Shown here piece by piece: positions 6,216 to 25,904 of a stretch of 32,000 nt of DNA. Position 1 is the first letter of the stretch. Every line of letters starts with the position of its first letter. A model generated the notes under the pieces. That model was not told the DNA's origin. It did no database searches and worked only from the letters and a program-made list of their open reading frames with translations. Source of the stretch: an uncultured bacterium (lineage in GTDB: Bacteria; Fidelibacterota; Marinisomatia; SCGC-AAA003-L08; D37C17); assembly GCA_964551815.1 (NCBI GenBank), contig CAZKEL010000015.1:12097-44096 (forward strand), given 5' to 3'. The translations under genes and the position numbers were made by a program.

Positions 6216-7010
6216 ATGCTAATTTGGATAGAAATTCTCCTTCTGGTCTTCCTTGCGGGGGGCGTATATACTTATAAGTGTAATTGGAAGCCGGTAAAAC
6301 CCCATTTTTTGCCTTCTGAAAAACAAACCCTCATTGGTCATCGAGGTGCTCCTTTTCTCTCAAAGGAAAATACATTGGAATCATTTCAAAAAGCCTTTGA
6401 CGCAGGACTTAATGGCGTTGAATTGGATGTTCAATTTTCTTCAGATAAAGAATTAGTGGTGTTTCATGATTATATCATTGAATCACTGAATTCACCCTCA
6501 ATAGAAATAAACAATATCCCTTATGATATGCTTCTTAATATAAGTGATAATACCATTCCCTTATTATCAGATGTAATTGCTGCTCTTCCTAAAAATTCCT
6601 TTATAAATATTGAAATAAAATCTAAATATTTAATAAATACAGGCATTGAAAACAAAGTTCTCACAGAAATTGAAAAAGGAGGAATTGAAAAGCAGTGCAT
6701 CGTATCAAGTTTCAACCCCTTTGTGCTGTGGAGGATAAAGAAAGCTAACCCCAAAATTATTACCGCCTTTCTATGGACAGCTAATAATACCGAATCCATT
6801 ATAAATAGTCCATTATGGGTTTGGTACTGCAGACCAGATGGATTTCATGCAGATATTCGACAGCTTGACGAGAAGTTGACACAATGGATAAGAAAGAAAA
6901 ACATGTTTGCTTCGGCATATACGGTAAATTCTCAAGAACATTTTGCTAAGGCTAAGAGACTATTGTTGGATGGAATTTTCACAGATGACCCATATCTAAA
7001 TAAAGAATAA
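6216..7010 (+). CDS. Glycerophosphodiester phosphodiesterase (GDPD) family protein with an N-terminal TM anchor
   Basis: GDPD catalytic blocks are present: LIGHRGAP...ENTLESFQKA...GVELDVQFSSD...VVFHD. A single N-terminal hydrophobic helix is also present. Confidence 0.8.
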   Translation: MLIWIEILLLVFLAGGVYTYKCNWKPVKPHFLPSEKQTLIGHRGAPFLSKENTLESFQKAFDAGLNGVELDVQFSSDKELVVFHDYIIESLNSPSIEINNIPYDMLLNISDNTIPLLSDVIAALPKNSFINIEIKSKYLINTGIENKVLTEIEKGGIEKQCIVSSFNPFVLWRIKKANPKIITAFLWTANNTESIINSPLWVWYCRPDGFHADIRQLDEKLTQWIRKKNMFASAYTVNSQEHFAKAKRLLLDGIFTDDPYLNKE

Positions 7011-7059
7011 CACTGCCTAATACCTTTAAATTTAGAATACAGGAAAAGCCTAAATAAAT

Positions 7060-7980
7060 ATGGACGATATTTTTTCCCGATTATCACAACTGAAAAAAGA
7101 GAGAAAGGCAGTAATTCTCGCTCATTATTATCAAGATCCTGATATTCAGGATGTTGCCGATGTAATGGGAGACAGTTTAGCCCTTGCACAGCATGCTGTG
7201 AAAACTGATGCAGAGGTTATCCTTTTCTGTGGTGTTCATTTTATGTGTGAAACTGCTAAGATTCTAAACCCGGGAAAAACGGTGATATTACCTGATATGG
7301 ATGCCGGCTGTTCTCTGGCTGACAGCGCACCGAGAGATGAGTTTAAAAGCTGGGTAGAAAGTCACCCTGACCATACTGTTATCAGTTATATCAACTGCAG
7401 CGCAGAGGTTAAGGCAATGTCTGATATAATCTGCACTTCATCAAATGCTGAGAAAATTTTAAACAGCCTGCCAAATAATGAAAAAATCATTTTTGCTCCG
7501 GATAAATTTTTAGGCTCTTATCTAATGGAAAAGACGGGGAGGGATATGCTGCTTTGGAACGGATCCTGCCAAGTACATGAGATATTCTCTGAGAAGGAAC
7601 TTGTAAAATTGATGATACGACACCCTGGGGCAGAGGTGCTTGCTCATCCTGAATGTGATGAAAATATTTTACGGCATGCCCATCATATCGGGTCTACCAC
7701 CTCCATCATCAACTACGGTGCTAAATCAAATACCACAGAATTTATTATAGCCACAGAACCGGGAGTAATTCACCAAATGGAGAAAGCTAATCCGGATAAG
7801 ACTTTTATACCATTACCTTCCAATGATGGTTGTGCCTGTAATGAATGCCCACACATGAGGTTAAACACTTTAGAAAAGATGGTGACCGCACTGGAAAACC
7901 TCTCACCGGAGATCACCATGGAAGAAGATTTGAGAATTAAAGCCCTGGTTCCCCTAGAAAGGATGTTGGCACTCAGTTGA
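7060..7980 (+). CDS. nadA: Quinolinate synthase
   Basis: Conserved NadA blocks are present: AVILAHYYQDPDIQDVAD, GVHFMCETAKILNP, YINCSAEVKA, AHPEC and CACNECPHM. Confidence 0.95.
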   Translation: MDDIFSRLSQLKKERKAVILAHYYQDPDIQDVADVMGDSLALAQHAVKTDAEVILFCGVHFMCETAKILNPGKTVILPDMDAGCSLADSAPRDEFKSWVESHPDHTVISYINCSAEVKAMSDIICTSSNAEKILNSLPNNEKIIFAPDKFLGSYLMEKTGRDMLLWNGSCQVHEIFSEKELVKLMIRHPGAEVLAHPECDENILRHAHHIGSTTSIINYGAKSNTTEFIIATEPGVIHQMEKANPDKTFIPLPSNDGCACNECPHMRLNTLEKMVTALENLSPEITMEEDLRIKALVPLERMLALS

Positions 7981-8840
7981 TTGAATACCCTCAGCATCTC
8001 TCCCTCTCGGCCTCATACATAAGAGAAAAAATTGCTTCCTTTTTAAAGGAGGATCTTCCCGGCGGAGATAAAACCACTTCAGCTACCATTTCTGGCAGTT
8101 CAGAAATTTCAGCCCATATTATTGCTGTGGAAAAAATGGTATTTGCCGGCGAAACAATTATTCCTGAATGTTTTGGGGATGAATGCAAAGTAGATAATCT
8201 ACTAAAAGATGGCAAGCATCTGAAAAAGGGAGAAATAATCGGATTAGTTACCGGAGCAGCATCAACAATACTTTCCCGGGAAAGGGTTATGCTGAATCTT
8301 GTGCAGCGGTTATGCGGCATCGCCACCCAAACACGGGAATATGCTCAAACCGCAGCTCCTTTTGGGGTGAAAATTTTGGACACCAGAAAGACAACCCCTG
8401 GCCTGAGACTGTTTGAAAAGTATGCTGTAGCTGTAGGAGGTGGACATAATCACCGCTTAGATCTTTCCAGTGGAATTTTAATCAAAGATAATCATATCGC
8501 AGCAGCAGGTTCGGTGGAAAATGCAATTAAAAGTACCCGTGCTCAAAACCAAGAATTACCCTTAGAATTGGAAGTGGATAACTTATCCCAAATCAGAGAG
8601 GCACTTACAATTGGAGTAGATGGATTTCTGTTGGACAATATGGATAGAGAGAAAATTATTAGGGCTGTAAATCTCATCCGAAATTCACGAAAAGGAAATG
8701 ACATTTTTATAGAAGCTTCCGGAGGGATAACCCTTAATAATATTGAAGAATATCTGGATACAGGTATCAATGCAATTTCTGTGGGTGCTCTCACTCATGG
8801 AGTAAAAAGTAGAGATATTCGATTGGAATTTCTGTCATGA
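7977..8840 (+). CDS. nadC: Nicotinate-nucleotide pyrophosphorylase (carboxylating)
   Basis: Motifs LDTRKTTPGLRLFEKYAVAVGGGHNHR, LIKDNHI and IEASGGITLNNI. A TTG start overlaps the nadA stop (GTTGA), and the stop overlaps the nadB start (ATGA). Confidence 0.9.
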   Translation: MIEYPQHLSLSASYIREKIASFLKEDLPGGDKTTSATISGSSEISAHIIAVEKMVFAGETIIPECFGDECKVDNLLKDGKHLKKGEIIGLVTGAASTILSRERVMLNLVQRLCGIATQTREYAQTAAPFGVKILDTRKTTPGLRLFEKYAVAVGGGHNHRLDLSSGILIKDNHIAAAGSVENAIKSTRAQNQELPLELEVDNLSQIREALTIGVDGFLLDNMDREKIIRAVNLIRNSRKGNDIFIEASGGITLNNIEEYLDTGINAISVGALTHGVKSRDIRLEFLS

Positions 8841-10411
8841 AACCATCCATTGAAACGGAAATCCTCATTATCGGCAGTGGTTTGGCAGGAGCTGTTGCAG
8901 CAATCAGTGCAGCGGATGAAGGGAAACAGGTACTCATTATTACCAAATCTCAAAAGTTAAAATCAGGGAACACTCCCAAAGCGCAAGGGGGTATTGTTTA
9001 TACCAGTTCTGAAGACTCACCACAGAAGCTGAAAGAGGATATCATCAAAGCAGGTGATAACCATTTTTGGGAAAAAGCAGTTGATCATATCTGTAACTTA
9101 GGACCAACACTGGTTAAGGATTATTTGATAAACCGGTTTAAGGTGAATTTTGATCAAAACTCCGCTGAAACTTCCTCCGCTGAATTATCTCTTACCAGAG
9201 AGGCGGCCCATTCAGAGCCACGAATTATTTATAGTAAAGATAAAACAGGTGATTCTATTCAATCAGCTATTTTAAGGGCGATAGAGGAGCATCCCAACAT
9301 TACCGCTCTAACAGACCATACGGCCATAGACTTGCTTACGCTTTCTCACCATTCTAAAATTTCTGCTGACATTTATGAAAAACCAGCCTGTTTTGGTGCT
9401 ATGGTTTTGGATAATCAAAAAGGGAATGTAATTGCTGTATATGCTCAACGAACCATTCTGGCAACGGGTGGATTAGGACAAATTTATCTCCATTCTACAA
9501 ATCCGGAAGAAGCCATTGGGGATGGCATTGCCATGGCATGGCGGGCAGGTGCCAGGTGTTTTAATTTGCAGTATATTCAATTTCACCCAACCACTTTATA
9601 TGGAAGCACCAATCGTTTTTTGATTTCTGAAGCAGTGCGGGGTGAAGGAGGGAAATTAATTGACAGCAATGGAAATGAATTTATGCAGTCCATTCATGAA
9701 AAGGGCAGCTTAGCACCACGTGACATAGTTGCAAGAGGTATTCACCAAACTATGCTGGATTCAGGTCAGCCTTGTATGTATCTGGATATTTCTTTTAAAA
9801 ATCGCAACTGGATTGAGAACCGATTCCCCTCCATCTATAAAAATTGTTTGCAGGCAGGCGTGGATATGGCGGCAGAACCTGTTCCTGTGGTTCCTGCTGC
9901 ACACTATAGTTGTGGAGGTGTGGGAGTAAATTTAGCCGGGCACACCTCCTTAAAACGCTTATATGCAGTGGGTGAAGTTGCCTGCACCGGGGTTCATGGT
10001 GCGAATCGTTTAGCCAGCACCTCCCTGCTGGAAGCCTTGGTCTGGGGTCATGAAGCAGGGAAAGATGCTGCACATTTTCATCAGGGTGACGATTACTTCC
10101 CTCAAATTGAAAACTGGGTGGAAGAAACGGAAGAAATTGACCCCGCTCTTATTGCTCAGGATTGGCTCACTATAAAAAATACCATGTGGAATTATGCAGG
10201 GCTTATCAGAACCCGACAGAGATTGCACCGTGCACGTACCATCTTGAGAAATTTACAGACGGAAATTGAAGATTTTTATCAAAAAGCTAAACTGTCCCCC
10301 AGTATGGTGGGGCTTCGAAACGGCATTCAAACTGCAAATGCAATTATTGCTGCTACCTTAGAAGCAAGGGAAAGTCGTGGCACTCACTATCTATTAGAAG
10401 AGGGAGAATAA
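8837..10411 (+). CDS. nadB: L-aspartate oxidase
   Basis: An N-terminal FAD fold (ILIIGSGLAGAVAA) is present, with QFHPT, AAHYSCGGV and GANRLASTSLLE blocks and a C-terminal ESRGTHY. Confidence 0.93.
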   Translation: MKPSIETEILIIGSGLAGAVAAISAADEGKQVLIITKSQKLKSGNTPKAQGGIVYTSSEDSPQKLKEDIIKAGDNHFWEKAVDHICNLGPTLVKDYLINRFKVNFDQNSAETSSAELSLTREAAHSEPRIIYSKDKTGDSIQSAILRAIEEHPNITALTDHTAIDLLTLSHHSKISADIYEKPACFGAMVLDNQKGNVIAVYAQRTILATGGLGQIYLHSTNPEEAIGDGIAMAWRAGARCFNLQYIQFHPTTLYGSTNRFLISEAVRGEGGKLIDSNGNEFMQSIHEKGSLAPRDIVARGIHQTMLDSGQPCMYLDISFKNRNWIENRFPSIYKNCLQAGVDMAAEPVPVVPAAHYSCGGVGVNLAGHTSLKRLYAVGEVACTGVHGANRLASTSLLEALVWGHEAGKDAAHFHQGDDYFPQIENWVEETEEIDPALIAQDWLTIKNTMWNYAGLIRTRQRLHRARTILRNLQTEIEDFYQKAKLSPSMVGLRNGIQTANAIIAATLEARESRGTHYLLEEGE

Positions 10412-11238
10412 GTAAAATTATCGATTAGCCTGGTTTTTCCTGAAAATACTGCTACTGAGACAAGAACCTCGCCGGAAATAGTCTCGGTTACCTCTGCAAG
10501 ACTATCTGCAGCTGCAACAGATACATAATCAATTTTCAATAATGGTTGTGTTGAAATATGTTTAGATATAGTATCCCGGATAATTTGGGGATCGTCTATT
10601 CCTGAAAGGAGCAGGTTCTTTCCTTCCTGCAAGGCAGGATAAATTTGAGCAGCAGCCTCTTTTTCTTCCTCTGACAGGTACGCATTCCGTGAACTCATTG
10701 CCAAGCCATTAGTCTCCCTAATGAGTGTGCAGGGAATAATTTCAATGGGAAAGTTTAAATCTGCCACCATCTTTTTTATTACTACCAACTGCTGTGCATC
10801 TTTCTCGCCAAAAAAAGCATGGGTAGGCTTGACAATATTAAACAGCTTTGCCACCACCGTTGTCACTCCCTGAAAAAAGGAAGGGCGGCTATTTCCTTCT
10901 AAAACTCCTGAAAGGTTTTCTTCAGTGATTTTAGTACTAAAATCACTTGGATACATTGTATCATCGTTTGGGAGAAAAACTGCATCAATACCAAAGGAAT
11001 CAAGTTTTTTTAAATCTGACTCTAAAGGTCTGGGATAGTTGGCTAAATCTTCGCCGGGAGCAAATTGTTGCGGATTTACGTAAATGCTGACAACAGTATG
11101 GCTGCAGGTTTCTCTGGATTTTTCAACAAGAGACAGGTGCCCATCATGAAGGGCTCCCATAGTTGGCACAAAGCCTACGGATTCAGTTATCCCTTTCCGC
11201 CATTCACGGAATTGAGAAATACTTACAATCGTTTTCAT
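10387..11238 (-). CDS. panC: Pantoate--beta-alanine ligase
   Basis: Motifs GFVPTMGALHDGHLSL, VVSIYVNPQQF, FGEKDAQQL, MSSRN and TRLIDN. The 3' end overlaps the convergent nadB 3' end by 25 nt. Confidence 0.93.
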   Translation of the reverse strand: MKTIVSISQFREWRKGITESVGFVPTMGALHDGHLSLVEKSRETCSHTVVSIYVNPQQFAPGEDLANYPRPLESDLKKLDSFGIDAVFLPNDDTMYPSDFSTKITEENLSGVLEGNSRPSFFQGVTTVVAKLFNIVKPTHAFFGEKDAQQLVVIKKMVADLNFPIEIIPCTLIRETNGLAMSSRNAYLSEEEKEAAAQIYPALQEGKNLLLSGIDDPQIIRDTISKHISTQPLLKIDYVSVAAADSLAEVTETISGEVLVSVAVFSGKTRLIDNFTYSPSSNR

Positions 11239-11241
11239 GTA

Positions 11242-12075
11242 TTAACTGTTGACTTTTATGGCTTTGTTTTTCCGCAGGATATAATGGGCTTCAGCGGGGA
11301 ATTGTTTCTTTTCTACTTCAAGTTTATAAGATTTCAAAGCATCCAGCATCTGGGAACTTAGATTTGTATATTGTTTGGAATGTTTTGGGGTGTGACCATT
11401 ATAGAGACCAATAATGTCATGCAATACCTGAATTTGCCCATCGCAATAGGGACCTGCACCAATGCCAATAGTAGGTATGTCAAGAAGGCTGGTAATTTCC
11501 TCAGCTAAGTCGGCAGGGATTCCTTCTAACACAACGGCAAAAGCACCGCAATCCTGAACGGCCAGGGCATCTTCTTTAATTTTCTCAGCTTCTAAATCAC
11601 TTTTCCCTTGGATGCGGTATCCTGAGCTGAGGTGAAAAGATTGAGGGAGCAGTCCAACATGACCCATCACCGGAATTCCTGCTTCAATAATTGCCTTTAT
11701 CTGGCTGGTGTAGGCAGTACCACCTTCCAATTTTATAGCTTCTGCACCAGACTCTTTTACGAATCTTCCGGCATTTCTCACCGCATCTTCAACAGAGGCT
11801 TGATAAGACATAAAGGGCATATCTGCCACCACCAAAGCATTTGTGGCTCCCCTTCTGACTGCCCTGGTAAGAAAAATTAATTCATCCATGGAGATGGGAA
11901 TAGTTGTATCCAGTCCATAAATAACCATGGCAGCACTGTCACCCACTAATAAAAGCGGAATGCCTGCGGAATCTGCATTTTGGGCAGAAACATAATCATA
12001 GGCAGTCACCGTTGCAAAAGGTGTGGCTTCCCTTTTAAACCTACGGATATCTCTGATGGTAATTTTGGAATTCAT
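11242..12075 (-). CDS. panB: 3-methyl-2-oxobutanoate hydroxymethyltransferase
   Basis: Motifs TAYDY, LLVGDS, VVADMPF, AIKLEGG, PVMGHVGLLPQ and IGIGAGPYCDGQIQV. Confidence 0.93.
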   Translation of the reverse strand: MNSKITIRDIRRFKREATPFATVTAYDYVSAQNADSAGIPLLLVGDSAAMVIYGLDTTIPISMDELIFLTRAVRRGATNALVVADMPFMSYQASVEDAVRNAGRFVKESGAEAIKLEGGTAYTSQIKAIIEAGIPVMGHVGLLPQSFHLSSGYRIQGKSDLEAEKIKEDALAVQDCGAFAVVLEGIPADLAEEITSLLDIPTIGIGAGPYCDGQIQVLHDIIGLYNGHTPKHSKQYTNLSSQMLDALKSYKLEVEKKQFPAEAHYILRKNKAIKVNS

Positions 12076-12078
12076 TTT

Positions 12079-12456
12079 TTAAGCAAATACTGCTTCTTCA
12101 TTACAGGTGGAGGTAATTTCGTTATCTGAATTTACATGCACAATTTGTGGTTGGTGATAGGCTACTTCCTCCTCGGTCAACTGGCAATATCCTACAATAA
12201 TCACCAAATCTCCCTTGTGAACCAGATGAGCTGCAGCTCCGTTTATACACACTTCTCCAGAGCCTCTCCCGCCTTTAATGACATAGGTTTCTATTCGGCT
12301 GCCATTGGTAATATCCAACACCTGAACTTTTTCAAATTCCCGAAAACCGGCAGCATCCATTAAATCTTCATCTAAAGTTATGGAACCCACATAATGCAGA
12401 TCGGCTTCTGTTACCGTTGCCCGGTGTATTTTTCCTTTTAACATTTCAATGATCAA
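12079..12456 (-). CDS. panD: Aspartate 1-decarboxylase proenzyme
   Basis: [25 protein letters not shown] contains the Gly-Ser self-cleavage site. NGAAAH is also present. The N-terminus aligns with the classical MIRTMLQGKLH start. Confidence 0.9.
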
Positions 12457-12695: not shown

Positions 12696-13568
12696 ATGCA
12701 ATTTTCACGAAATGTGTTCACCATTCTGCTAACTGCTATTTTTCTGATTTCATGCGGAGGAAAGAAAAGCGAAGTGGAAGCTACCCCCGATACCACAGAA
12801 GAAACCATTACCATGGGTAACCACAATACTTATCCCGTTGAACAGACTGCAGTAGAAAGAAATGTGCAGGAAATTATTGAGGGGCTGAATATGGATATTA
12901 AAAAGCTCCGCGCAGAATTGGACTATCAACATGAAAATTTGAGTAAACTGGAAGCCCAATCCCAGATATGGGCAAATCCATTCGCCATTTACAACAAAGA
13001 AATTGTGTTAGATAATGGTAGTTCAATCTTTGGGAAAATTGTTTACCAAGATCAGGATGTAATGAAAGTAGAAACCCTCATCGGTCAGCTCATAATTGAC
13101 AGAAACACGATCATCAGGGTGGTAAATCAGGTAAGTGCTTATGGTAATTTTGAGAAAAACAATACAGATGCTGCTCTGTCAGCAGCCGATCCGGAAGACC
13201 CCTCTGGAATAAACCTGATTCAGAAACGCACAAAATCACTTTCTGCAAATCTGGTACTGGTAGGGGATATCTCCGAAGAAAAGGATGCTTCCGGTAATAC
13301 CATATTGACTGGTGAAGTAAAAAATGTGGGAAACAAACGGGCAGATTTTGCCAAAATTATATTCACTTTCCGTTTAAATTGGCAGGGTGACACAAAAACT
13401 CTCACTGCATTTATAAACGGAGTAACCAATACTTTCGATACGGGAATATCATCTGATAACAGCATTCTCCCTCATGCGGTAGGAAATTTTGAGTTGATGA
13501 TTCCCCGATCTTTTGGCACCTTTATCGGCTATAGTTATGACATTGACTGGAGTCAATATGAGGGCTGA
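12696..13568 (+). CDS. Predicted lipoprotein with a coiled-coil segment and a beta-rich C-terminal domain (function unknown)
   Basis: Signal peptide plus lipobox (TAIFLISC|GG). A heptad-like segment NMDIKKLRAELDYQHENLSKLEAQ is present. It is the first gene of a tightly spaced co-directional array. Confidence 0.6.
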   Translation: MQFSRNVFTILLTAIFLISCGGKKSEVEATPDTTEETITMGNHNTYPVEQTAVERNVQEIIEGLNMDIKKLRAELDYQHENLSKLEAQSQIWANPFAIYNKEIVLDNGSSIFGKIVYQDQDVMKVETLIGQLIIDRNTIIRVVNQVSAYGNFEKNNTDAALSAADPEDPSGINLIQKRTKSLSANLVLVGDISEEKDASGNTILTGEVKNVGNKRADFAKIIFTFRLNWQGDTKTLTAFINGVTNTFDTGISSDNSILPHAVGNFELMIPRSFGTFIGYSYDIDWSQYEG

Positions 13569-14187
13569 TGGCAGCTTCAGGCTGGCTTTAATTATCTGCC
13601 TTTTCGGAATGATCTATGCTGAAAAGATAACCTTGTGGGATTTTGGTGTCATCATAAAAGAGGAACAGTCTCAAATACCAGCCACCAATGTGAATGCCCA
13701 GGCAGCGCCGGAGATAAAGGCACTCATCTCAGACCCTTTTATAGCACCGAAAAAATCGTCTGAGGTTCAGTTTCATCAGCCAGTTGAAAAAGTATCCCCA
13801 ATTAGAAGGGTAACCGGTGAAAACTTTCGGGAGGTGGAAAAATTTATTCAAAGGCATACACTTCAAAAAAATTTTAATCATATTATTCAATCTCTTGAAG
13901 ATAGTGATTTGACGGAATTAACGCTTTCAAACCGTGCAGAAATTCAATTTTGGCTGGCAACTTCATTTATTGAGACAGGACAATTTCAAAAAGCTTTACC
14001 CTATGCACTTTGGGCAGGCTCAAACAGAGGGTCTGACAGAGATTTATTCCTTACGGCTAAAATTTATGAAAAAACCGGCGAAACAGCAAAAGCACTGTAC
14101 CAATACCAGCAGCTCATGTCTCTCTACCCTGACAGCGACTACTACCATTCAGCAAAAATTAAATCCAGAATAATCGCCCGCAGCTAA
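13558..14187 (+). CDS. Secreted TPR-like protein (YbgF/BamD-style C-terminal repeats)
   Basis: I prefer the ATG at 13558 (GGAG 5 nt upstream) over 13513. It has a hydrophobic signal-like N-terminus (FRLALIICLFGMIYA) and a C-terminal TPR-like sequence (QFQKALPYALWA...AKALYQYQQLMSLYPDSDYYHSAKIK). It overlaps the previous gene by 11 nt. Confidence 0.5.
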   Translation: MRADGSFRLALIICLFGMIYAEKITLWDFGVIIKEEQSQIPATNVNAQAAPEIKALISDPFIAPKKSSEVQFHQPVEKVSPIRRVTGENFREVEKFIQRHTLQKNFNHIIQSLEDSDLTELTLSNRAEIQFWLATSFIETGQFQKALPYALWAGSNRGSDRDLFLTAKIYEKTGETAKALYQYQQLMSLYPDSDYYHSAKIKSRIIARS

Positions 14188-14190
14188 AAA

Positions 14191-15531
14191 ATGACCAAAC
14201 CCGGAATTTTATTTCTACTTGTCTTGGTTATTGGATGGGAGCAGGCTGAGGCAAATTCCAGAATTTCTTACTCCCGCCCGGGAAATATGATACGTATTCC
14301 CAGCGTTGATCCTTCCATGAATAATAAATTGTTGGAGATCAATGTGTCATCTGAATACCTGTCATCCTCACAAAACAATTCAGGCTTTGCGGTGAATGCC
14401 ATGTCTCCTAATGGGTATTTATATGGTATTTCTATGGTAAACCCCGTCAATCCTGTCAATTCGGTTGAACTGGGTCTTCATGTGCAGCGCACCCTGTTAG
14501 AGTATGGGAATGTGAATCTGGATGTGGGTATCCATGATTTACTCTTTCGTTCGGGCAGCGACTCCACCGACGGGTTGGATACAAGAGGTATTTCCCTATT
14601 TGGAGTGCTCTCCAGCCAGAAGAGGTTTTCAGATTTTGCCATTGCCACCCATTTAGGTTTTGGATCGGGTAAAATTAATGAAGACTCCCATTTATTTGAG
14701 ACAAATCCAAGTCAAAATCTGGGGGTCTTTCTTGGGTTTAAGTTTACGACTCCCATTTTGAAAAAAAACGGTGGGTTAAGTTTTTTAACAGAATTTGACG
14801 GTACTGGCTTAAATCTTGGTCTTAACATTCCCATTTTTAATTCCTATCATATTAATTTTGGTATTACTCATTTTGAAAATTTTGGTAATTTTGCCACTGA
14901 AGACCGAGCCGGAACAGAATGGGAAGCCTTAAAAGGAAACGCTCCTTCTGTTACCTTTGGGGTGAGCATGAACATACCCCGGGCGGTATCTGCAGAAGAT
15001 GAAACCGAAGAGGAAACACGCGTAGGAGACGGCATTTATGCTGTTACGGACTCGTCAATTTTATACTATGAACCCATCTGTGTTGAAGTGGTTGAAACAT
15101 TGAGAGACTCCATCAGGGTCAATCAAAATACTATTGAAAATTTAAAGGCGCATAACAATATGCTTCTCCATTCTGAAGCCATACTGGTAGATTCTACACA
15201 AAAAAGTTTGTTTCGTGAACAGACCAGTCAATTGAATCAGAATAAGGCAATGCGTCATTTATCCAGATCACTGCGGTTTTTCTATTCTGAGCAGTACAGA
15301 GATGCCCTCTCTGAAGTGAATCTGGCAATAGAACTGAATCCCCAATTAGCTATTGCTTACGGGCGCAGGGGATCAATTTATTATAAATTGGGAGATGACC
15401 GCAGGGCTACCTTAAACTGGAATGTAGCTTTGCAGTTAGATCCGGAATTTACAGAAATTTACGATATGCTGAAGGCAGCAGAAGAGAACCGTCTTCAGCC
15501 TGTTGAAATAGGTAAGAAAACAGGAGATTAA
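14191..15531 (+). CDS. Secreted protein: N-terminal Gly/aromatic beta-rich domain (possible outer-membrane barrel) + coiled coil + C-terminal TPR
   Basis: Signal peptide MTKPGILFLLVLVIGWEQAEA. About 270 aa show alternating beta-like segments (GLHVQRTL, ISLFGVLS, LGVFLGFKF, HINFGITHF, SVTFGVSMNI). Canonical TPRs follow (AIELNPQLAIAYGRRGSIYYKLGDDRRATLNWNVALQLDPEF). Confidence 0.55.
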   Translation: MTKPGILFLLVLVIGWEQAEANSRISYSRPGNMIRIPSVDPSMNNKLLEINVSSEYLSSSQNNSGFAVNAMSPNGYLYGISMVNPVNPVNSVELGLHVQRTLLEYGNVNLDVGIHDLLFRSGSDSTDGLDTRGISLFGVLSSQKRFSDFAIATHLGFGSGKINEDSHLFETNPSQNLGVFLGFKFTTPILKKNGGLSFLTEFDGTGLNLGLNIPIFNSYHINFGITHFENFGNFATEDRAGTEWEALKGNAPSVTFGVSMNIPRAVSAEDETEEETRVGDGIYAVTDSSILYYEPICVEVVETLRDSIRVNQNTIENLKAHNNMLLHSEAILVDSTQKSLFREQTSQLNQNKAMRHLSRSLRFFYSEQYRDALSEVNLAIELNPQLAIAYGRRGSIYYKLGDDRRATLNWNVALQLDPEFTEIYDMLKAAEENRLQPVEIGKKTGD

Positions 15532-15534
15532 TGT

Positions 15535-16347
15535 ATGAATCTGGGTACCGTAATAGGATTAGTATTAGGTCTTGTGCTTATGGGAGTTGCGTCTGTTTTA
15601 GCATCAATGGGTGCCAATGTCCCTATGAGTGCGTTAGTAGATCCCGTCAGTTTTTTAATTGTGGTAGGGGGATCCATCGCTGCAACTGCCATCGCTTTTC
15701 CTTTAGAGGATGTGCTGGCGGCCTTCGGCGGGTTTGGAAAAGTATTCGGAACTCAAGGCTTTACCTTTAAAGATGTAGTTATGGATTATGTGAATTTAGC
15801 AGAACAGGCAAGAAAAGGTGAACTGGCAAAAGCTATTGAGGAAACTCCTGAACATATGCCCTTTCGATTAGGCTCTATTAAAGACGGGCTACAAATGATT
15901 GTGGATGGATATTCGCGGGATGACATTCGTGAAATTATGGAAAATAAAGAGGAATACCGATCTGTAAGGGAAATAAAAAAAGCAAACGCTATGGCAAAAA
16001 TGGGTGAATATGCCCCGGCTTTTGGAATGATCGGAACGCTTATCGGGCTGGTGTTCATGCTGGGATCCATGGCAAACCCCCCGGAACCTGGAGTTGACCC
16101 TGCTGCGAAACTGGGTGGTTCCATGGCGGTGGCTCTTATAACAACACTCTATGGTGCTTTCTTTGCCTTTTTCTTCTTTGGTCCTTTTTCAGATCAGCTT
16201 AAATACGAAAACGAAGATAAAAAAATTGAGTCTGCCATTCATGTGGAAGGCATTCTCTTGCTCCATGCAAAAACGCACCCCATTATGGTGAGAGATAAAT
16301 TAAATGCCTTTTTAGCACGGAAAGACCGCTTGAAAGATGAAGGATAA
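15535..16347 (+). CDS. motA: MotA/PomA-like stator channel protein (MotA/TolQ/ExbB family)
   Basis: Four-TM topology with a cytoplasmic loop of about 100 aa between TM2 and TM3. TM3 motif YAPAFGMIGTLIGLVF and TM4 TTLYGAFFAFFFFGPF carry both conserved prolines. AGGAG lies upstream of the ATG. Confidence 0.85.
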   Translation: MNLGTVIGLVLGLVLMGVASVLASMGANVPMSALVDPVSFLIVVGGSIAATAIAFPLEDVLAAFGGFGKVFGTQGFTFKDVVMDYVNLAEQARKGELAKAIEETPEHMPFRLGSIKDGLQMIVDGYSRDDIREIMENKEEYRSVREIKKANAMAKMGEYAPAFGMIGTLIGLVFMLGSMANPPEPGVDPAAKLGGSMAVALITTLYGAFFAFFFFGPFSDQLKYENEDKKIESAIHVEGILLLHAKTHPIMVRDKLNAFLARKDRLKDEG

Positions 16348-16352
16348 GCTGA

Positions 16353-17336
16353 TTGGCTAAGCAAAAATGCCCAGATTGTCCTCCTGAAGGGCTTCCCGGA
16401 TATATGGGAACCATGGCAGACATGTTTACCCTCCTGTTTGCTTTCTTCGTTCTCATGTTCTCTCTGGCTACCATGGACCCTGCTAAATTGGATGCCCTTG
16501 GTGGTGATAAAGCAGGAGCTGCTGATGCCAAAGAAGCAAAAGAAGCCGTTGAAGAAATAAAGAAAGAAATGCAGGAACTAAAAGAAAACGGAATTACAGA
16601 AATTAACGGTAAACCCATAGAAGAATATGCCGACAGTCTTATAGAACAGAAAATGAAAGAGACAATTCCCCCTCCGAAATTAGCGGAAGTTCGGAAGGAT
16701 GTAGCAGAGATCATTGAAGATATGGAATTGGACACCACAGCAAATCTCTCCATGAGAGACCAAAGAGGAATAGCATTTGAGTTAAATGGAGATATCTGTT
16801 TTAAACAGCTTTCCGCAGATATGCAGCCGGAACTGATACACTTTTTAGATGCAGCCGCTGACAGCTTTTTGGTGAACCCCAATGATAAACGCCAGGTGAT
16901 TGTTGAAGGTCATACGGATAATTTACCTATACCCAAAAAATTTAAAACCCGTTATCCTACAAACTGGGAGCTTTCCACAGCCCGTGCATCTGCTGTAGTA
17001 AATTATTTGATTGACAGGGGAGTGGATGCCTCCCGTCTGGTTGCTCATGGCTATGCGGAGCGCTGGCCTGCAGATCTTACCTGGTCTGATATGCGGAAAG
17101 GCTATGTTGAAGAACAGAAGGGCTCAAAAAAAATTGATCCCAGAACTGGGCAGGCATCTTTTGAAGGGGATATTGGCAGGTCTGATGTAAAGAAAAAACG
17201 CATCCCTATTCCCACCATGATTGATTCTCTCAATTCTACGGTGGAGTTAAGAAGAAAGAACAGACGAATTAAAATTATTTTTACCTATAATAATTATGTT
17301 GATGGTTCAGACCCATGGGTGCCTCCAAAAAATTAG
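16353..17336 (+). CDS. motB: MotB-like stator protein with an OmpA-type peptidoglycan-binding domain
   Basis: TTG start with GAAGGA 7 nt upstream. The N-terminal CPDCPPEGLPGYMGTMADMFTLLFAFFVLMF carries the conserved channel Asp (D23). OmpA-like blocks are VIVEGHTDNLPI, YPTNWELSTARASAVVNYL and RRKNRRIKIIF. There is a coiled-coil linker, and an extra segment of about 55 aa inside the OmpA-like domain. Confidence 0.85.
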   Translation: MAKQKCPDCPPEGLPGYMGTMADMFTLLFAFFVLMFSLATMDPAKLDALGGDKAGAADAKEAKEAVEEIKKEMQELKENGITEINGKPIEEYADSLIEQKMKETIPPPKLAEVRKDVAEIIEDMELDTTANLSMRDQRGIAFELNGDICFKQLSADMQPELIHFLDAAADSFLVNPNDKRQVIVEGHTDNLPIPKKFKTRYPTNWELSTARASAVVNYLIDRGVDASRLVAHGYAERWPADLTWSDMRKGYVEEQKGSKKIDPRTGQASFEGDIGRSDVKKKRIPIPTMIDSLNSTVELRRKNRRIKIIFTYNNYVDGSDPWVPPKN

Positions 17337-17403
17337 GAGCATTTCATTTTTAAGATGAGGATGAATCCATTAAATTTACAATGCCGTAAACAGGAGCAAA
17401 ATC

Positions 17404-18729
17404 ATGACCAATAAAACAGGTCGGTATTTCTTACTAATTGCTATTTTCACCCTGCTTTGGAACCAGCAGACCAACTACCTTGCACAGAAAATAGCCATTG
17501 AAAATTCATATAGGGATAAGGTGAATTCTGCTGTTTCCCGTATTTTGGGACAAGAAAAATTCCTCGTAATCGTGAATGTGGAATTCTCAACCATGGGAGG
17601 TACACTGAAAAAAGGAAGTGCTTCCTCCGAGGGGAAGGGAAATACCTATACACCTGTCCCCGGTCTGCCCACCCTGCCGTCTTCTTCAGGAAAATCTTCC
17701 ACATCATCAACAGGCAGTAAAACTCTCTCAGCCAATGATTATAGTATTGGCAGGGTAGAGGTTACCGTCGGTATTGATGAAACTATCGTTACCGGCTCCG
17801 TCAAACAGGAAATAAAACAAGTCGTTGCCAGAGTCATTCCTGAAACAGCGGACTGTGAGGACTGTATCAAAATTGAAGCCATGGAGTTTCAAAAGAGTAA
17901 AAAAGATCAGAAAATTGATGAATTAGTACAAAAAATTGAAAATCTTGAAACGGCAAAAAGACGGGCAGATATTGCTGCTGATTCTATCCGCTTAAATGAA
18001 TTAGAAAGACAATTAACCGAAGCAAATTCTATTAAACAGACTTGGGAGGCTATGGCAAAAGCCCGGGAATTGCAGCAAATGAAGCAGGACTCAATCCGCT
18101 TTGAGAATCTGGTGAAATCAGAGCGAGACCGAAAAATACAGGACTCCATCAAATTCGTAAATACAGAAGCACGGTTGGAGCGGGTTATCGAAAGTAAAAT
18201 AAAATCGGACTCAACCATTATCAGCGAAACCATGGGCATTTTGAAACAGACAACGGGTACAGGGGAAGAGAAAGAAGAGTCCATTTTAGGGATGGATATT
18301 GGGGGAGGCAGTTCTGACATAATGAGCTCTGTGATTTTTATTCTCTTAATAGTCGCCCTCATGATTGTTACCTTTTTAGCGGCAAATAATAAAAAACCTA
18401 AAACAGTTTATTTAAAACCTAAAGGGAAAGACAAAGAGCCAAAGAAGAAAGAAAAGAAAGAATCAAAGGGGAAAGACAAAAAAACCAAGAACGGCTCAGA
18501 TGAACCACCAGTCAATGAAACTCCTGCACCAGAGCCAACATCTGAACCGACACCTCCACCCCCAAGACCTGATGAAGATGCACTGCGTTCTGAAATAAAA
18601 TCACTGCGGCAAACGGCTGTATCTCTTACCGTAGGTGAAAAAGAGGGTGCATCCGCTCTTATTAAAGAGTGGTTGTCAGATAATCCAAATAAAGCAGACG
18701 AGGGTGGTGAAGAAGGTGGAGAGGAATAA
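17404..18729 (+). CDS. Truncated FliF-like (M-ring-like) two-TM protein with a long periplasmic coiled coil and a FliG-docking-like C-terminus
   Basis: TM1 is at aa 8-20. An RBM3-like pattern follows: YRDKVNSAVSRILGQEKFLVIVNVEF, then a Ser/Gly/Pro-rich insert, then IGRVEVTVGIDE...VKQEIKQVVARVIPE...CIKIEAMEF. Compare the FliF pattern VxVxAxLDF / RLSVAVVVN / GDxxxVxxxxF. A coiled coil spans aa ~165-265 and TM2 spans aa ~306-326. Then come a Lys-rich and a Pro-rich linker, then ASALIKEWLSDN, which resembles the Salmonella FliF C-terminus VVALVIRQWMSND (from memory). AGGAG lies 8 nt upstream. Confidence 0.55.
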   Translation: MTNKTGRYFLLIAIFTLLWNQQTNYLAQKIAIENSYRDKVNSAVSRILGQEKFLVIVNVEFSTMGGTLKKGSASSEGKGNTYTPVPGLPTLPSSSGKSSTSSTGSKTLSANDYSIGRVEVTVGIDETIVTGSVKQEIKQVVARVIPETADCEDCIKIEAMEFQKSKKDQKIDELVQKIENLETAKRRADIAADSIRLNELERQLTEANSIKQTWEAMAKARELQQMKQDSIRFENLVKSERDRKIQDSIKFVNTEARLERVIESKIKSDSTIISETMGILKQTTGTGEEKEESILGMDIGGGSSDIMSSVIFILLIVALMIVTFLAANNKKPKTVYLKPKGKDKEPKKKEKKESKGKDKKTKNGSDEPPVNETPAPEPTSEPTPPPPRPDEDALRSEIKSLRQTAVSLTVGEKEGASALIKEWLSDNPNKADEGGEEGGEE

Positions 18730-18735
18730 GCCATT

Positions 18736-19683
18736 ATGAAGACACTTGAAGACCTGACAGGTTACGATAAAGCAGCTATTATTTTTGACATTCTGGGAGA
18801 TTCTCTCGCTTTGAATATGTTTAAGGATATTCCTGAACCTGAGTTTTATGAGCTGCGAAACCATGCGAAAAACTTGCGGAATGATGTACCTACTTCTGTT
18901 AAAAAAGAAGTGTTGGAGGATTATTATTTCAAAATGCTTTCAGGGGAGAAGTATAAAGAAGAAACGACCATTGAGAATATGTTCGACTTTCTGGAATCTT
19001 TGGATGATGAACAGTTGTATGCCCTACTATCTCCGGAAAAACCCCGCGTCATAGCCCTTGCCCTTGAACAGTTAGACAACGAAAAGCGCATGACTTTTCT
19101 CTCAAAGGTGAATACAGAAAAGCAGAATAAAATAGTTATTGCAACAGGGGAGTTGAGTGATATTCCGCTGGAAGCTATTATTTTCACTGCCAAGGAGTTA
19201 AAGAAGAAAACGGCCTTTCTGCCTAAACCGGTTCAGTTTTCAAGAGGCGGCGGCAGGTCTGTTTCCGATATGCTGGGGAAAATGCCGGAAGATGAAGCAA
19301 TGCAGTATTTAGATCAAATGAAGATTAACAATCCCGATTTACTTGCTGAAGTGAAAAAATACTTCCTGCTCTTTGATGACATCATGAACATGCCGGAAGA
19401 TCTGGCAGCCACTTTTTGGGGCGACCCGGATATTGACCTTGAAATCATGGCAAAATCTTTAAAGGAACTTGAAACCGAAACAGTAGAAAAAATTCAAGGG
19501 TATCTGCCAGGGAAAAAGCAAGCCATGTTCACCCCTCATGAAGGAGCGCTTTCAAAGCGGGAAATTGATGAAGCCAAAGGGGCTATAAAAAATATCCTGC
19601 AAGGCAAGATAGATTCAGGAGATATAAATATTGAAGATGTTTTGGCTGCCCCTGAAATTGAAGAAGAAGGAGCCGAAGAATAA
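18736..19683 (+). CDS. FliG-like rotor/switch protein homologue
   Basis: Collinear with FliG over its full length. N-terminal LTGYDKAAIIFDILGDSLALNMFKDI matches LTGxxKAAILLxxLG. Middle PEKPRVIALALEQLDNEKRMTFLSKV matches EHPQTIALILSYL. FLLFDDIMNM matches MFVFEDL. C-terminal LSKREIDEAKGAIKNILQGKIDSGDINI matches VRLxDVEEAQQKIxxxxRxLEEEGEIxI. Its length (315 aa) is typical of FliG. Confidence 0.8.
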   Translation: MKTLEDLTGYDKAAIIFDILGDSLALNMFKDIPEPEFYELRNHAKNLRNDVPTSVKKEVLEDYYFKMLSGEKYKEETTIENMFDFLESLDDEQLYALLSPEKPRVIALALEQLDNEKRMTFLSKVNTEKQNKIVIATGELSDIPLEAIIFTAKELKKKTAFLPKPVQFSRGGGRSVSDMLGKMPEDEAMQYLDQMKINNPDLLAEVKKYFLLFDDIMNMPEDLAATFWGDPDIDLEIMAKSLKELETETVEKIQGYLPGKKQAMFTPHEGALSKREIDEAKGAIKNILQGKIDSGDINIEDVLAAPEIEEEGAEE

Positions 19684-24459: not shown

Positions 24460-25068
24460 ATGGTTCAATTGTTTATTGATGGCGGCGGGTTTATGTGGCC
24501 CATCCTTTTTATTTTCATCATTGGTTTTGTGTTCGTTATTGAACGCCTATACCACCTCTTTAAAGGATTATCAAGTAATGAAGAATTTGCCTACGAAATA
24601 GCAGACACGGTAAAAAATTCCGGACTTGATTCTGCTGTTTCCAAATGCGAAGGTGCCCAAGGACCTGTAGCCAACCTCTGCCTGGCAGCCTTAGACCGCG
24701 GTAACTTAGGTGCAGATGAAGCGGAACATGCACTGGACCATTCAGGTTCAATAGAAATGGCCTCCATGGAAAAAAATATGACTTGGATTTCTCTCTGCAT
24801 CGCCACGGCTCCCATGTTGGGCTTTTTGGGAACGGTTTGGGGTATGATTCAGGCATTTAATGATATTAAAATGGCAAATGATATTTCTCCCGCCGTTGTG
24901 GCAGGAGGGATTTCAGTAGCACTGCTTACTACTGCCTTTGGTCTGGTAGTGGCTGTGGTTCTACAGGTTTTTCAGAATGCGGTTCTGTATATTATTGATA
25001 ATCAGATCGTCACCTTGCAGAAATCTACTACGGCTCTGCTTCATGCCATAAAAGATTCAGTAAAGTAA
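24460..25068 (+). CDS. exbB: MotA/TolQ/ExbB-family proton channel (ExbB-type)
   Basis: 202 aa and three TMs. The motif is IATAPMLGFLGTVWGMIQAF...GGISVALLTTAFGLVVA. It is followed by two ExbD genes and a TonB gene. Confidence 0.85.
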   Translation: MVQLFIDGGGFMWPILFIFIIGFVFVIERLYHLFKGLSSNEEFAYEIADTVKNSGLDSAVSKCEGAQGPVANLCLAALDRGNLGADEAEHALDHSGSIEMASMEKNMTWISLCIATAPMLGFLGTVWGMIQAFNDIKMANDISPAVVAGGISVALLTTAFGLVVAVVLQVFQNAVLYIIDNQIVTLQKSTTALLHAIKDSVK

Positions 25069-25086
25069 TTTGGCAGGTAGAAAACA

Positions 25087-25488
25087 ATGATTAAGAAAGA
25101 AAGACGACCGATGCAGGAAATCAATTCCTCCTCAATGGCGGATATTGCCTTTCTCCTGCTGGTCTTTTTTCTGGTAACCACCACCATTTCTATGGATAAG
25201 GGAATTAGTCTGGTGCTCCCATCTGAGGGAAATGAGTTGGAAGTAAACCGCAAAAACATTGTTAATATTCTAATGAATGAATCCGGAAAAGTCTTAATGG
25301 ATGATGCTCCAACTAAAGTAAACGCTATCAAAAACATCGTTGAGAAGAGACTTGCCGCAAACCCCAATTTAATATTTTCTGTGCAGACCCATCCCCTCAC
25401 AAAATATCAAGATTATCTCAGGGTACTGGATCAATTAAAAGAGGCAAAAGCAGGTAAAATATCCATTGCAAATCCGCCGGAATTTTAA
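25087..25488 (+). CDS. exbD: Biopolymer transport protein ExbD/TolR
   Basis: 133 aa. The N-terminal EINSSSMADIAFLLLVFFLVTT is a single TM carrying the conserved Asp, followed by a periplasmic alpha/beta domain. Confidence 0.85.
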   Translation: MIKKERRPMQEINSSSMADIAFLLLVFFLVTTTISMDKGISLVLPSEGNELEVNRKNIVNILMNESGKVLMDDAPTKVNAIKNIVEKRLAANPNLIFSVQTHPLTKYQDYLRVLDQLKEAKAGKISIANPPEF

Positions 25489-25491
25489 AAA

Positions 25492-25902
25492 TTGAAGATT
25501 GCCAGAAAAACTCATACCAGCCGCGAAATATCCACTGCCTCATTGCCGGATATTATTTTTATGCTGCTCATTTTTTTCATGGTGACCACGGTCATGCGGG
25601 AATATGAGGGACTGGATGTTGTCATGCCTCGTGCCAAAATGATTGAAAAGCTGGAAAGTAAACGGCATACTTCCTATATCTGGGCAACCAAAGACGGGCT
25701 GGTTTCCGTAGATGACCGTATAATTCATATCAATGATCTGTCGGGGTTAATGTACACAAAAATTGCCAAAGATCCGAAAATTACGGTGTCTTTGAAATCG
25801 GATGAAAAAGCTACCATGAAACTCATCACGGATATTCACACTCAGCTGAGAACCGCCAACGCTTTAAAACTCAGTTATTCAGCCCTAACAAAAACCAACT
25901 GA
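25492..25902 (+). CDS. exbD: Biopolymer transport protein ExbD/TolR (second paralogue)
   Basis: TTG start 3 nt after the previous stop. EISTASLPDIIFMLLIFFMVTT is a TM carrying an Asp. Confidence 0.8.
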   Translation: MKIARKTHTSREISTASLPDIIFMLLIFFMVTTVMREYEGLDVVMPRAKMIEKLESKRHTSYIWATKDGLVSVDDRIIHINDLSGLMYTKIAKDPKITVSLKSDEKATMKLITDIHTQLRTANALKLSYSALTKTN

Positions 25903-25904
25903 TT

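Follow-up and report, generated by a model that had tools for sequence, protein, structure and literature searches.

A candidate stand-alone rotor-stator module derived from the flagellar motor core and conserved across the Marinimicrobia

What does a bacterium do with a flagellar stator and rotor when the genes beside them encode no other part of a flagellum? The question is raised by a 32,000-nucleotide stretch of DNA from an uncultured bacterium (hereafter the window, meaning the whole stretch that was analysed), whose closest relatives are metagenome-assembled genomes (MAGs) of Candidatus Marinimicrobia, also named SAR406, Neomarinimicrobiota or Fidelibacterota, a phylum of the FCB group. 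At positions 12696-19683 of the window, seven genes on the + strand, which we call g1 to g7, form a compact block that encodes a lipoprotein, two further secreted proteins, a MotA-like and a MotB-like protein, a FliF-like protein and a FliG-like protein. The answer that we favour, and that we hold to be more probable than not, is that the block encodes a rotor-stator machine that stands alone, has its origin in the flagellar motor core, is conserved in the phylum and is not part of a flagellum. An earlier note on this DNA had given the coordinates, the shared strand and the spacing of the seven genes, and a check of the open reading frames (ORFs) reproduces them exactly, with intergenic distances of -11, 3, 3, 5, 67 and 6 nt. 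We place the start of g2 at the ATG at 13558, because the -11 nt overlap with g1 demands that start; the ORF list instead has an upstream TTG at 13513. The genes and their domains are as follows, with lengths in amino acids (aa) and TM for transmembrane.

12696-13568, + strand: g1, lipoprotein, 290 aa, lipobox LISC
13558-14187, + strand: g2, secreted TPR protein, 209 aa, 11-nt overlap with g1
14191-15531, + strand: g3, secreted protein, 446 aa, N-terminal domain of about 300 aa followed by C-terminal TPRs
15535-16347, + strand: g4, flagellar-type stator A subunit (MotA/PomA/MotP-like), 270 aa, four TM helices
16353-17336, + strand: g5, MotB-like stator B subunit, 327 aa
16362-16499, + strand: plug and TM helix of g5 with the channel Asp D23 (Pfam MotB_plug)
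16800-17075, + strand: OmpA-like peptidoglycan-binding domain of g5 (Pfam OmpA)
17076-17336, + strand: lineage-specific C-terminal extension of g5 (aa 242-327)
17404-18729, + strand: g6, mini-FliF, 441 aa
17482-17883, + strand: periplasmic RBM3-like domain of g6 (AlphaFold model, MAFFT, Foldseek)
17899-18231, + strand: long periplasmic helix of g6 (aa 166-276), predicted with pLDDT above 90
18316-18384, + strand: TM helix of g6 (aa 305-327; hydropathy 3.01, helix in the model)
18571-18693, + strand: cytoplasmic C-terminal motif of g6 (aa 390-430), putative FliG-binding helices (conservation)
18736-19683, + strand: g7, FliG-like rotor protein, 315 aa
18754-19014, + strand: FliG_N of g7 (Pfam)
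19009-19209, + strand: FliG_M of g7 (Pfam)
19315-19632, + strand: FliG_C of g7 (Pfam)

Is the stator pair of the flagellar kind? For g4, the Pfam family MotA_ExbB (PF01618) scores above its gathering cut-off at 4e-22, with MotA_N at 6.8e-4, and the full-length NCBIfam matches are MotP at 8e-48, PomA at 2e-42 and MotA at 3e-42, as against 0.11 for TolQ, 0.63 for ExbB and 0.014 for ZorA2. All ten matches among solved structures (PDB) are flagellar MotA or PomA, full-length and with E-values of 2.4e-31 to 3e-15. Four TM-like segments agree with the four-TM channel architecture of MotA_ExbB and its large cytoplasmic loop between TM2 and TM3. The scores fall short of the NCBIfam equivalog cut-offs (162.8 against 394 bits for MotP, 145 against 341 bits for PomA), and judged by its sequence g4 is a divergent member of the flagellar stator A family, not an equivalog. 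The rotor-facing charges AR(R/K)...E are kept, such that AEQARKGELAKAIEE of g4 pairs with SRKARREGLL-SLED of solved MotA. In E. coli, the pairing of MotA R90/E98 with FliG D289/R281 is the textbook charge pairing of the torque interface (PMC7564593). The protein g5 has one TM segment and matches MotB_plug (1.6e-11) and OmpA (6.6e-15), both above gathering cut-offs; its D23 aligns with the channel Asp of E. coli MotB, D32, and the peptidoglycan-binding motif NWELSxxRA is kept. The Pfam, NCBIfam and PDB matches of g4, and the Pfam hits, channel Asp and peptidoglycan-binding motif of g5, bear out the earlier assignment of the two genes as a MotA and as a MotB with an OmpA domain. A sodium-coupled stator was considered and is not relied on, its basis being only the PomA/MotP similarity and the marine habitat. 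Past the OmpA domain, g5 continues for about 85 residues in a C-terminal extension with the conserved motif IDSLNxTxELRRKNRRIKIIFT (window lineage; also locus L001, 7591-8604); neither E. coli MotB nor the MotB proteins of other Marinimicrobia lineages, which are shorter (217-281 aa), have this extension.

The same MotB/OmpA parts give g5 a weak match to a ZorB model (2.8e-12), as would be expected if the block were a Zorya-type anti-phage defence system, a reading that we find hardly credible and rejected. PADLOC shows no ZorC/D or ZorE effector; it is blank for g1-g4, g6 and g7 and returns only generic ZorB matches for g5, the cut-off of the ZorA2 model that g4 touches so faintly is 700 bits, and the block occupies conserved positions among housekeeping genes and is conserved vertically across the phylum, unlike defence islands.

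Is there a rotor for this stator to act on? In g7 all three FliG domains lie above their Pfam gathering cut-offs: FliG_N at 7.7e-7 (30.1 bits, cut-off 25), FliG_M at 1.7e-6 (28.6 bits, cut-off 25) and FliG_C at 1.5e-10 (41.7 bits, cut-off 23.3). FliG_N also scores strongly in the g7 relatives of sister lineages, and among solved structures g7 matches FliG of T. maritima (1lkv) at 5.3e-10. The FliG identity claimed earlier stands on these domains; the TIGR00207 equivalog model scores 68.1 bits, below its cut-off of 226.7. The protein keeps the Gly-Gly linker and an MFxF-like hinge, with SRGGG and YFLLFDD aligning with MGGV and EMFLFEN of E. coli. Two functional surfaces differ. The FliM-binding motif EHPQR is altered to EKPR in the window and to ETPR, EEPK or ESDS in other lineages, with Glu alone invariant, and the torque helix MSxRAAxxLxDDL (R281, D288, D289 and R297 in E. 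coli) is replaced by a family-wide LPxKKQAMFxP-EG..KRE. Read from these alignments, half of the MotA-FliG torque interface is remodelled in g7.

What, then, is g6, the gene between the stator and the FliG-like protein? A search of the PDB sequences with the g6 family profile and with the C-terminal peptide finds no FliF, and the case is made through relatives. With a 40-sequence alignment of g6 we searched 1.84 billion representative proteins exhaustively and found 263 members of the family. Nine distant relatives carry PF08345 (YscJ_FliF_C) above cut-off from about residue 47; these proteins, which we call long-type, have about 480-630 aa, and PF08345 begins right after their N-terminal hydrophobic segment. 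Profile-profile alignment with hhalign joins the g6 family to the long family with 99.7% probability (E 7.8e-27, 401 columns). The long family in turn has a flagellar M-ring protein as its best PDB match (E 2.7e-4) and aligns with E. coli FliF residues 210-431, and a tblastn search with E. coli FliF residues 238-438 matches one mini-FliF directly. PF08345 is the RBM3/beta-collar part of FliF, and PF01514 is the RBM1/RBM2 part, which surrounds the export gate. PF01514 is absent from g6 and from every relative that we examined. Since RBM1 and RBM2 are absent, g6 falls outside the FliF family definition, and a FliF of this form would therefore, by inference from MS-ring structures, enclose no export gate in the known way.

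The predicted fold points the same way. MAFFT places the periplasmic domain of g6 on RBM3 of E. coli FliF from about residue 228. The AlphaFold model (mean pLDDT 62) has a split RBM topology, alpha-beta/insert/beta-alpha-beta, in which an RBM3-like domain is made of alpha1-beta1 (aa 27-62) and beta2-alpha2-beta3 (aa 113-160); the modelled elements are alpha1 to residue 48, beta1 54-62, the insert 63-112, beta2 114-124, alpha2 131-144 and beta3 155-159. The insert is disordered and rich in S, T, G and P, and it occupies the position of the FliF beta-collar. The best Foldseek matches of the model in the PDB are FliF S-ring or RBM3 structures (9a67, 8z5v, 8z4g, 7bk0, 8ftf, 7d84, 6sd1), with target-normalised TM-scores of about 0.5-0.55 and probabilities of 0.85-1.0. 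In the MS-ring, which has 34 subunits, the S-ring and the collar are reported to be formed by RBM3 (10.1101/2024.07.30.605930, PMC11739650). Profile, fold and motif evidence together support g6 as a homologue of the RBM3/collar part of FliF, the support being transitive. The earlier description of g6 as a FliF-like protein with two TM helices holds for the FliF homology, by transitive profiles and model fold; as for the helices, one is clear (aa 305-327), and the first is a hydrophobic stretch of only about 12 residues, below the TM threshold. For this N-terminal stretch, a possible alternative to a TM helix is a signal peptide that is removed, in which case the RBM3 ring might lie off the membrane, at the far end of the long helix.

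That helix is predicted to run for about 110 residues (aa 166-276) and would, if straight, be about 16 nm long. The conserved motif DSxxFxNTExRLERVxESKxKSDS lies at its end nearest the membrane, and the corresponding region of the sister family is likewise helical and longer. After the long helix of g6, a disordered stretch leads to the TM helix, which is followed in turn by the conserved juxtamembrane motif NKKPKTxYLKPK, a cytoplasmic linker rich in K and P, and a C-terminal helix at aa 391-425. The C-terminal 45 or so residues are the most conserved segment of the fast-evolving g6, with the motif DEDAxRSExxSLRQTAVSLTVGEKEGASALIKEWLxDNPNK at aa 390-430. In a mixed MAFFT alignment E397 and W423 of g6, both invariant, align with the E. 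coli FliF C-terminus ...AEV..VIRQWINNDHE. A profile of 46 C-terminal residues, run against 177,635 PDB sequences, has Vibrio FliF as its sole match other than designed coiled coils, and this match lies on the 20 final residues of that FliF, LVANEPELAAQVVKNWMNDN. The last residues of FliF are the segment that binds FliG_N in flagella, and the C-terminal helices of g6 are by these alignments putative binders of the FliG_N domain of g7. The tails that follow differ between types: long-type mini-FliF proteins (P0357, P0387, P0385, P0364) have a Pro-rich stretch and a poly-lysine tail (e.g. ...GKKKKKKK) after the helix that resembles a FliG-binding one, and the window type ends in an acidic tail, GGEEGGEE.

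How widely is the block kept? We scanned one genome per species with the FliG-like alignment as the query, the mini-FliF alignment being too diverse to offer a conserved stretch, and found a FliG-like relative encoded in 204 species genomes; the nearest locus, JASLLI010000007.1, has 96% identity for g7. Gene order was counted in the best 80 of the 204 loci, which all belong to this phylum save two very short contigs and unclassified MAGs. A Marinimicrobia-type FliG-like gene is carried by L055 (JAKUNG010000054.1, assigned to Terriglobia, 2.5 kb) and by L074 (JAKUUL010000067.1, assigned to SAR86, 4 kb), most likely through binning contamination rather than as an occurrence outside the phylum. 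MotA, MotB and the FliG-like protein are collinear in 66/66 loci with at least 3.4 kb upstream, a mini-FliF lies immediately upstream of FliG in 73/73 (67 found with the window protein and 6 with long-type queries), and g1 and g3 are also in order in 52 of the 53 loci with at least 6.3 kb upstream. The flanks vary by lineage, with panDBC and uvrA in the window and PPDK, asparagine synthase, gyrA or lptD elsewhere; since the flanking genes differ between lineages, the block itself is the conserved unit. The conserved synteny on which the earlier note had staked its proposal is therefore found, with the order kept across the phylum between different flanks. Its module of seven genes is kept in part: the order from g1 and g3 to FliG recurs in those 52 of 53 loci, and the invariant core is four genes, as one locus described below (L082) has it.

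Purifying selection on all seven genes is strong. Measured against the closest relative, the dN/dS values are 0.013 for g7, 0.021 for g5, 0.022 for g4, 0.050 for g6, 0.038 for g1, 0.047 for g3 and 0.159 for g2, the fastest-evolving of the seven, as compared with 0.019 for uvrA and 0.048-0.111 for panB and panC, ratios that are approximate with dS near saturation. These values bear on the idea that the block is the decaying, non-functional relic of an ancestral flagellum. The loss of FliF domains and the altered FliG motifs would fit decay, as would one long-read assembly (L093, a contig from ENA) in which FliG and g3 are each two ORFs. In L093, g3 is read as ORFs of 278 aa and 187 aa, the latter with the TPRs (7023-8419), and FliG as ORFs of 184 aa (N and M domains) and 130 aa (C domain) (11499-12432); this is either real gene fission or the result of frameshift errors in a polished long-read assembly. 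We nevertheless consider a relic very improbable: dN/dS of the core genes, 0.013-0.05, is as low as that of uvrA, reading frames are intact and order is conserved in 66/66 species loci including streamlined genomes, and new conserved motifs specific to the family have evolved.

The genes g1-g3 upstream of the core are less familiar. For g1 there is no Pfam hit and no known family, and its profile finds nothing in the PDB. The protein has a coiled coil, an SH3-like segment KEIxLxNGSxxFGKIVYQD and a C-terminal beta-rich domain, and its last 230 or so residues are conserved phylum-wide. Its N-terminus is exchanged between lineages, from a lipobox and short linker in the window lineage (12696-12770) to a signal peptide and an Ig-like CarboxypepD_reg domain in other lineages (L006, 4992-5340; L007, 4987-5300; L008, 4846-5190). 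The protein g2 has a signal-like N-terminus and C-terminal TPRs (TPR_6 6.6e-8, TPR_2 4.8e-7), and in NCBIfam it weakly resembles the TPR proteins PorW/SprE, YbgF/CpoB and BamD, far below their cut-offs. The protein g3 has a signal peptide and a mature N-terminus of the form S/T-R-V-A-F/Y-S/T-R-P-G. Its N-terminal domain of about 300 aa has no relative in Pfam or the PDB. We extracted 60 orthologues of g3; a profile search of the PDB gave TPRs only.

Could there be a flagellum all the same? A tblastn search with 22 further E. coli flagellar proteins (FliE/H/I/J/L/M/N/P/Q/R, FlhA/B, FlgB-I, FlgK and FlgL) gives zero matches in the window and 86 related loci, 1.42 Mb in all, and the same set-up recovered the operon with E. 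coli FliG, MotA and MotB as queries. The accompanying flagellar genes are thus missing beside the module, as had been noticed for the window. In 66/66 loci fliF-fliG is preceded by motAB and it is never followed by fliH/I/J. The sole cultured member of the phylum, Fidelibacter multiformis IA91, is non-motile, and its cells have been imaged by cryo-EM (PMC11652737); a comparative-genomics study of the phylum makes no mention of flagella, motility or chemotaxis (PMC6143742).

Several results weigh against a working machine separate from the flagellum, or against its parts being what we take them to be. The protein g6 has no Pfam or NCBIfam hit of its own, and an hhalign comparison of its family alignment with E. 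coli FliF yields nothing but a spurious TM match. In the Foldseek search the E-values are modest (0.006-0.1), with OsmC/Ohr folds interleaved with the FliF matches, and the match of the C-terminal profile to Vibrio FliF (E 0.28-0.48) is not significant alone. In the torque helix of g7 a Lys stands at the R281 position and the acidic pair (D288/D289 of E. coli) is gone, so that the canonical MotA-FliG charge pairing cannot work unchanged; the EHPQR motif is changed too. The single-sequence AlphaFold model of g3 has a pLDDT of 30 and no usable fold. The exception among the 53 loci, L082 (CP070787.1), is a closed 3.1-Mb Fidelibacterota MAG with the four core genes only, at 6721-10903: MotA, MotB, a mini-FliF of 568 aa with PF08345, and FliG, with an Nramp transporter and a glycoside-hydrolase-like protein upstream on the opposite strand; g1-g3 are either encoded at another place in this genome or missing from it. 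Last, 'flagellar assembly' genes have been reported in Marinimicrobia MAGs (10.1101/2020.06.03.132969), and the negative search for flagellar genes covers the window and 1.42 Mb of related loci, not whole genomes.

The last two points are what would be seen if the block were a divergent piece of a genuine flagellum, with the remaining genes elsewhere in the genome. We think this improbable. The part of FliF that goes with the export gate is missing in g6 and all its relatives, motAB stands before fliF-fliG with no fliH/I/J after it in any of the 66 loci, the 22 queries go unmatched, the one isolate does not move, and the operon is kept in the near-complete, streamlined 1.8-Mb genome of L093. 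It may be just these four genes that gave rise to the 'flagellar assembly' calls.

The lost acidic pair counts for another alternative, in which no productive rotation takes place: the FliG/mini-FliF platform would be a static docking site that activates MotAB as a force transducer of the Tol-Pal/Ton kind, serving envelope integrity or division through the TPR proteins and the OmpA-like domain. The mix of TPR proteins, a motor of the MotA/TolQ superfamily and an OmpA-like binder in one operon parallels Tol-Pal, g2 is weakly like TPR proteins of the YbgF/CpoB and BamD type, and the phylum's one isolate has an unusual cell-wall biology (PMC11652737). However, g4 is of the flagellar stator type and not of the TolQ/ExbB type, the YbgF match is far below cut-off (20 against 90 bits), and the window holds a separate ExbB-ExbD-ExbD-TonB set. 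The plug, FliG_N, FliG_M and FliG_C, and the FliF ring domain are moreover all kept under strong purifying selection, which a docking function alone does not easily explain. We judge static docking unlikely, and return to the rotor-stator machine.

How might such a machine work? The stator units of g4 and g5 would be anchored to peptidoglycan through the OmpA-like domain of g5 and gated by its plug, with ions passing through the channel that holds D23, and they would push on the C-terminal domain of g7. The FliG_N domain of g7 would be held on the conserved C-terminal helices of g6, which would oligomerise by its single RBM3-type domain into an S-ring-like ring. The g6/g7 ring would then turn in the inner membrane, probably in one direction and without switching, because there is no FliM/FliN and the EHPQR surface is changed. 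Through its periplasmic ring and long helix, g6 would hand the movement on to g1-g3, the co-conserved lipoprotein and TPR proteins, whose part would be either to act as a scaffold for the stators or to relay the output in the direction of the outer envelope. Spelled out in full, the proposal is of an undescribed envelope nanomachine in a non-motile phylum, in which flagellar-type stators spin an S-ring/C-ring-like rotor, made of a FliF reduced to RBM3 and a FliG that has no FliM interface, and a periplasmic helical stalk of about 16 nm carries the torque to the lipoprotein/TPR partners, powering some process of the outer envelope, for example transport at the surface, secretion or remodelling of the envelope. 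This fuller version is tentative, and we would give it slightly less than an even chance.

The surroundings of the block are those described before, with panD, panB and panC on the - strand on one side and a convergent uvrA 3 nt downstream on the other. The remaining ORFs of the window are housekeeping: nadA, nadC and nadB, a POT transporter, an S41 protease, succinate dehydrogenase, CrcB, SpoVG and, 5 kb past the operon at 24460-26531 on the + strand, the cluster ExbB (202 aa), ExbD (133 aa), ExbD (136 aa) and TonB (208 aa), by which the host owns a conventional Ton motor besides the MotAB pair. A comparable ExbB/ExbD/TonB cluster lies near the operon in the related loci L008 and L093. The nadA-nadC-nadB genes (7060-10411) are followed by the convergent panC-panB-panD (10387-12456), and the 3' ends of nadB and panC overlap by 25 nt. 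Antisense ORFs of 108-199 aa on the - strand cross g4-g6 at 16283-16882, 17907-18362 and 18408-18734; their translations are of low complexity and have no support, and they are most likely by-products of a coding strand rich in purines, the AT skew and the GC skew being positive at 15-19 kb of the window. We also observe that g6 and g7 share one reading frame, separated by a stop codon.

Is the system new? Databases already label some of these proteins 'FliG C-terminal domain-containing protein' or 'flagellar M-ring protein FliF C-terminal domain-containing protein'. To our knowledge, a FliF/FliG rotor has so far been seen only within flagella, built around the type III export gate, and the non-flagellar stator relatives that we know of (Ton, Tol, GldLM, AglRQS and Zorya) are all without a FliG/FliF rotor. 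Our full-text literature search found no description of a module of FliF, FliG and MotAB only, in this or any other phylum, in agreement with the earlier note, whose author knew of no described system of exactly this composition; nor did it turn up an explicit statement about flagella in the phylum; a survey of MotAB evolution (PMC12505986) and a survey of flagellar gene distribution (10.64898/2026.06.11.731707) do not mention it.

Marinimicrobia are globally abundant and make up a large share of deep-ocean bacterioplankton. In them the torque-generating module is split from the export and axial structures and is kept under strong selection phylum-wide, and surveys of MAGs that infer 'flagellar motility' from motA, motB, fliG or fliF alone would mislabel these organisms. 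If the module does rotate, the rotor-stator pair is an autonomous, reusable module, the flagellar torque generator can exist and operate in the absence of a type III export apparatus and of axial structures, and the phylum offers a natural minimal system in which to study torque without switching or export. It would also bear on how flagellar rotation and secretion were joined, or on how they separate after the loss of a flagellum. Rotation with a demonstrated non-flagellar output would make it a new kind of envelope machine.

How does the block compare with known systems? Tol-Pal and Ton are alike in that ion-driven motors of the MotA/ExbB superfamily energise the outer envelope, and in Tol-Pal, moreover, CpoB/YbgF is a TPR protein and Pal an OmpA-like binder of peptidoglycan. 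They differ in having no FliG/FliF rotor, and g4 is not of the TolQ/ExbB type, nor g5, which is of the MotB type, of the TolR/ExbD type. GldLM/PorLM, which serves type IX secretion and gliding in the FCB group, resembles the proposed machine as an ion-driven inner-membrane motor of the 5:2 type that passes rotation across the periplasm to partners associated with the outer membrane, with no flagellum; g2 matches the PorW/SprE model weakly (3e-6, 26 against 250 bits). GldL and GldM do not, however, belong to the flagellar stators, and their system lacks both FliG and a FliF ring. The injectisome proteins SctJ/SctD and the sporulation proteins SpoIIIAG/AH (PMC4768692) share the ring-building motif alpha-beta-beta-alpha-beta and build large periplasmic or intermembrane rings, but these are static channel scaffolds with no FliG partner or stator, and the g6 family matches the FliF-specific PF08345 and S-ring structures.

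For g1-g3, the closest functional analogy is with the TPR/lipoprotein stator scaffolds of high-torque motors. PflA and PflB are TPR proteins. In Campylobacterota, PflA and PflB and the lipoprotein FlgP (PMC12054838) are comparable to g1-g3 as a lipoprotein and periplasmic TPR proteins whose genes go with those of a MotAB-driven rotor and which presumably assemble around it. Searches of Pfam, NCBIfam and the PDB detect no sequence relationship of g1-g3 with scaffolds of this type, and, unlike g1-g3 in their setting, PflA, PflB and FlgP decorate a complete flagellum.

The last comparison is with the flagellar motor core itself. Here the block differs in that export gate, ATPase, rod, hook, filament, FliM/FliN and FliE are not found in the window and the 1.42 Mb of related loci, in a g6 without RBM1/RBM2 whose RBM3 and TM helix are separated by a long helix of about 110 aa, in a g7 with no acidic pair in the torque helix and a changed EHPQR, and in an operon that places motAB immediately before fliF and also includes genes for TPR proteins and a lipoprotein. 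What is the same is that all four core proteins are homologous and that the fliF-fliG gene order is kept. The parts have been annotated already and the system itself is undescribed; we read it as a flagellar motor core that is put to use alone.

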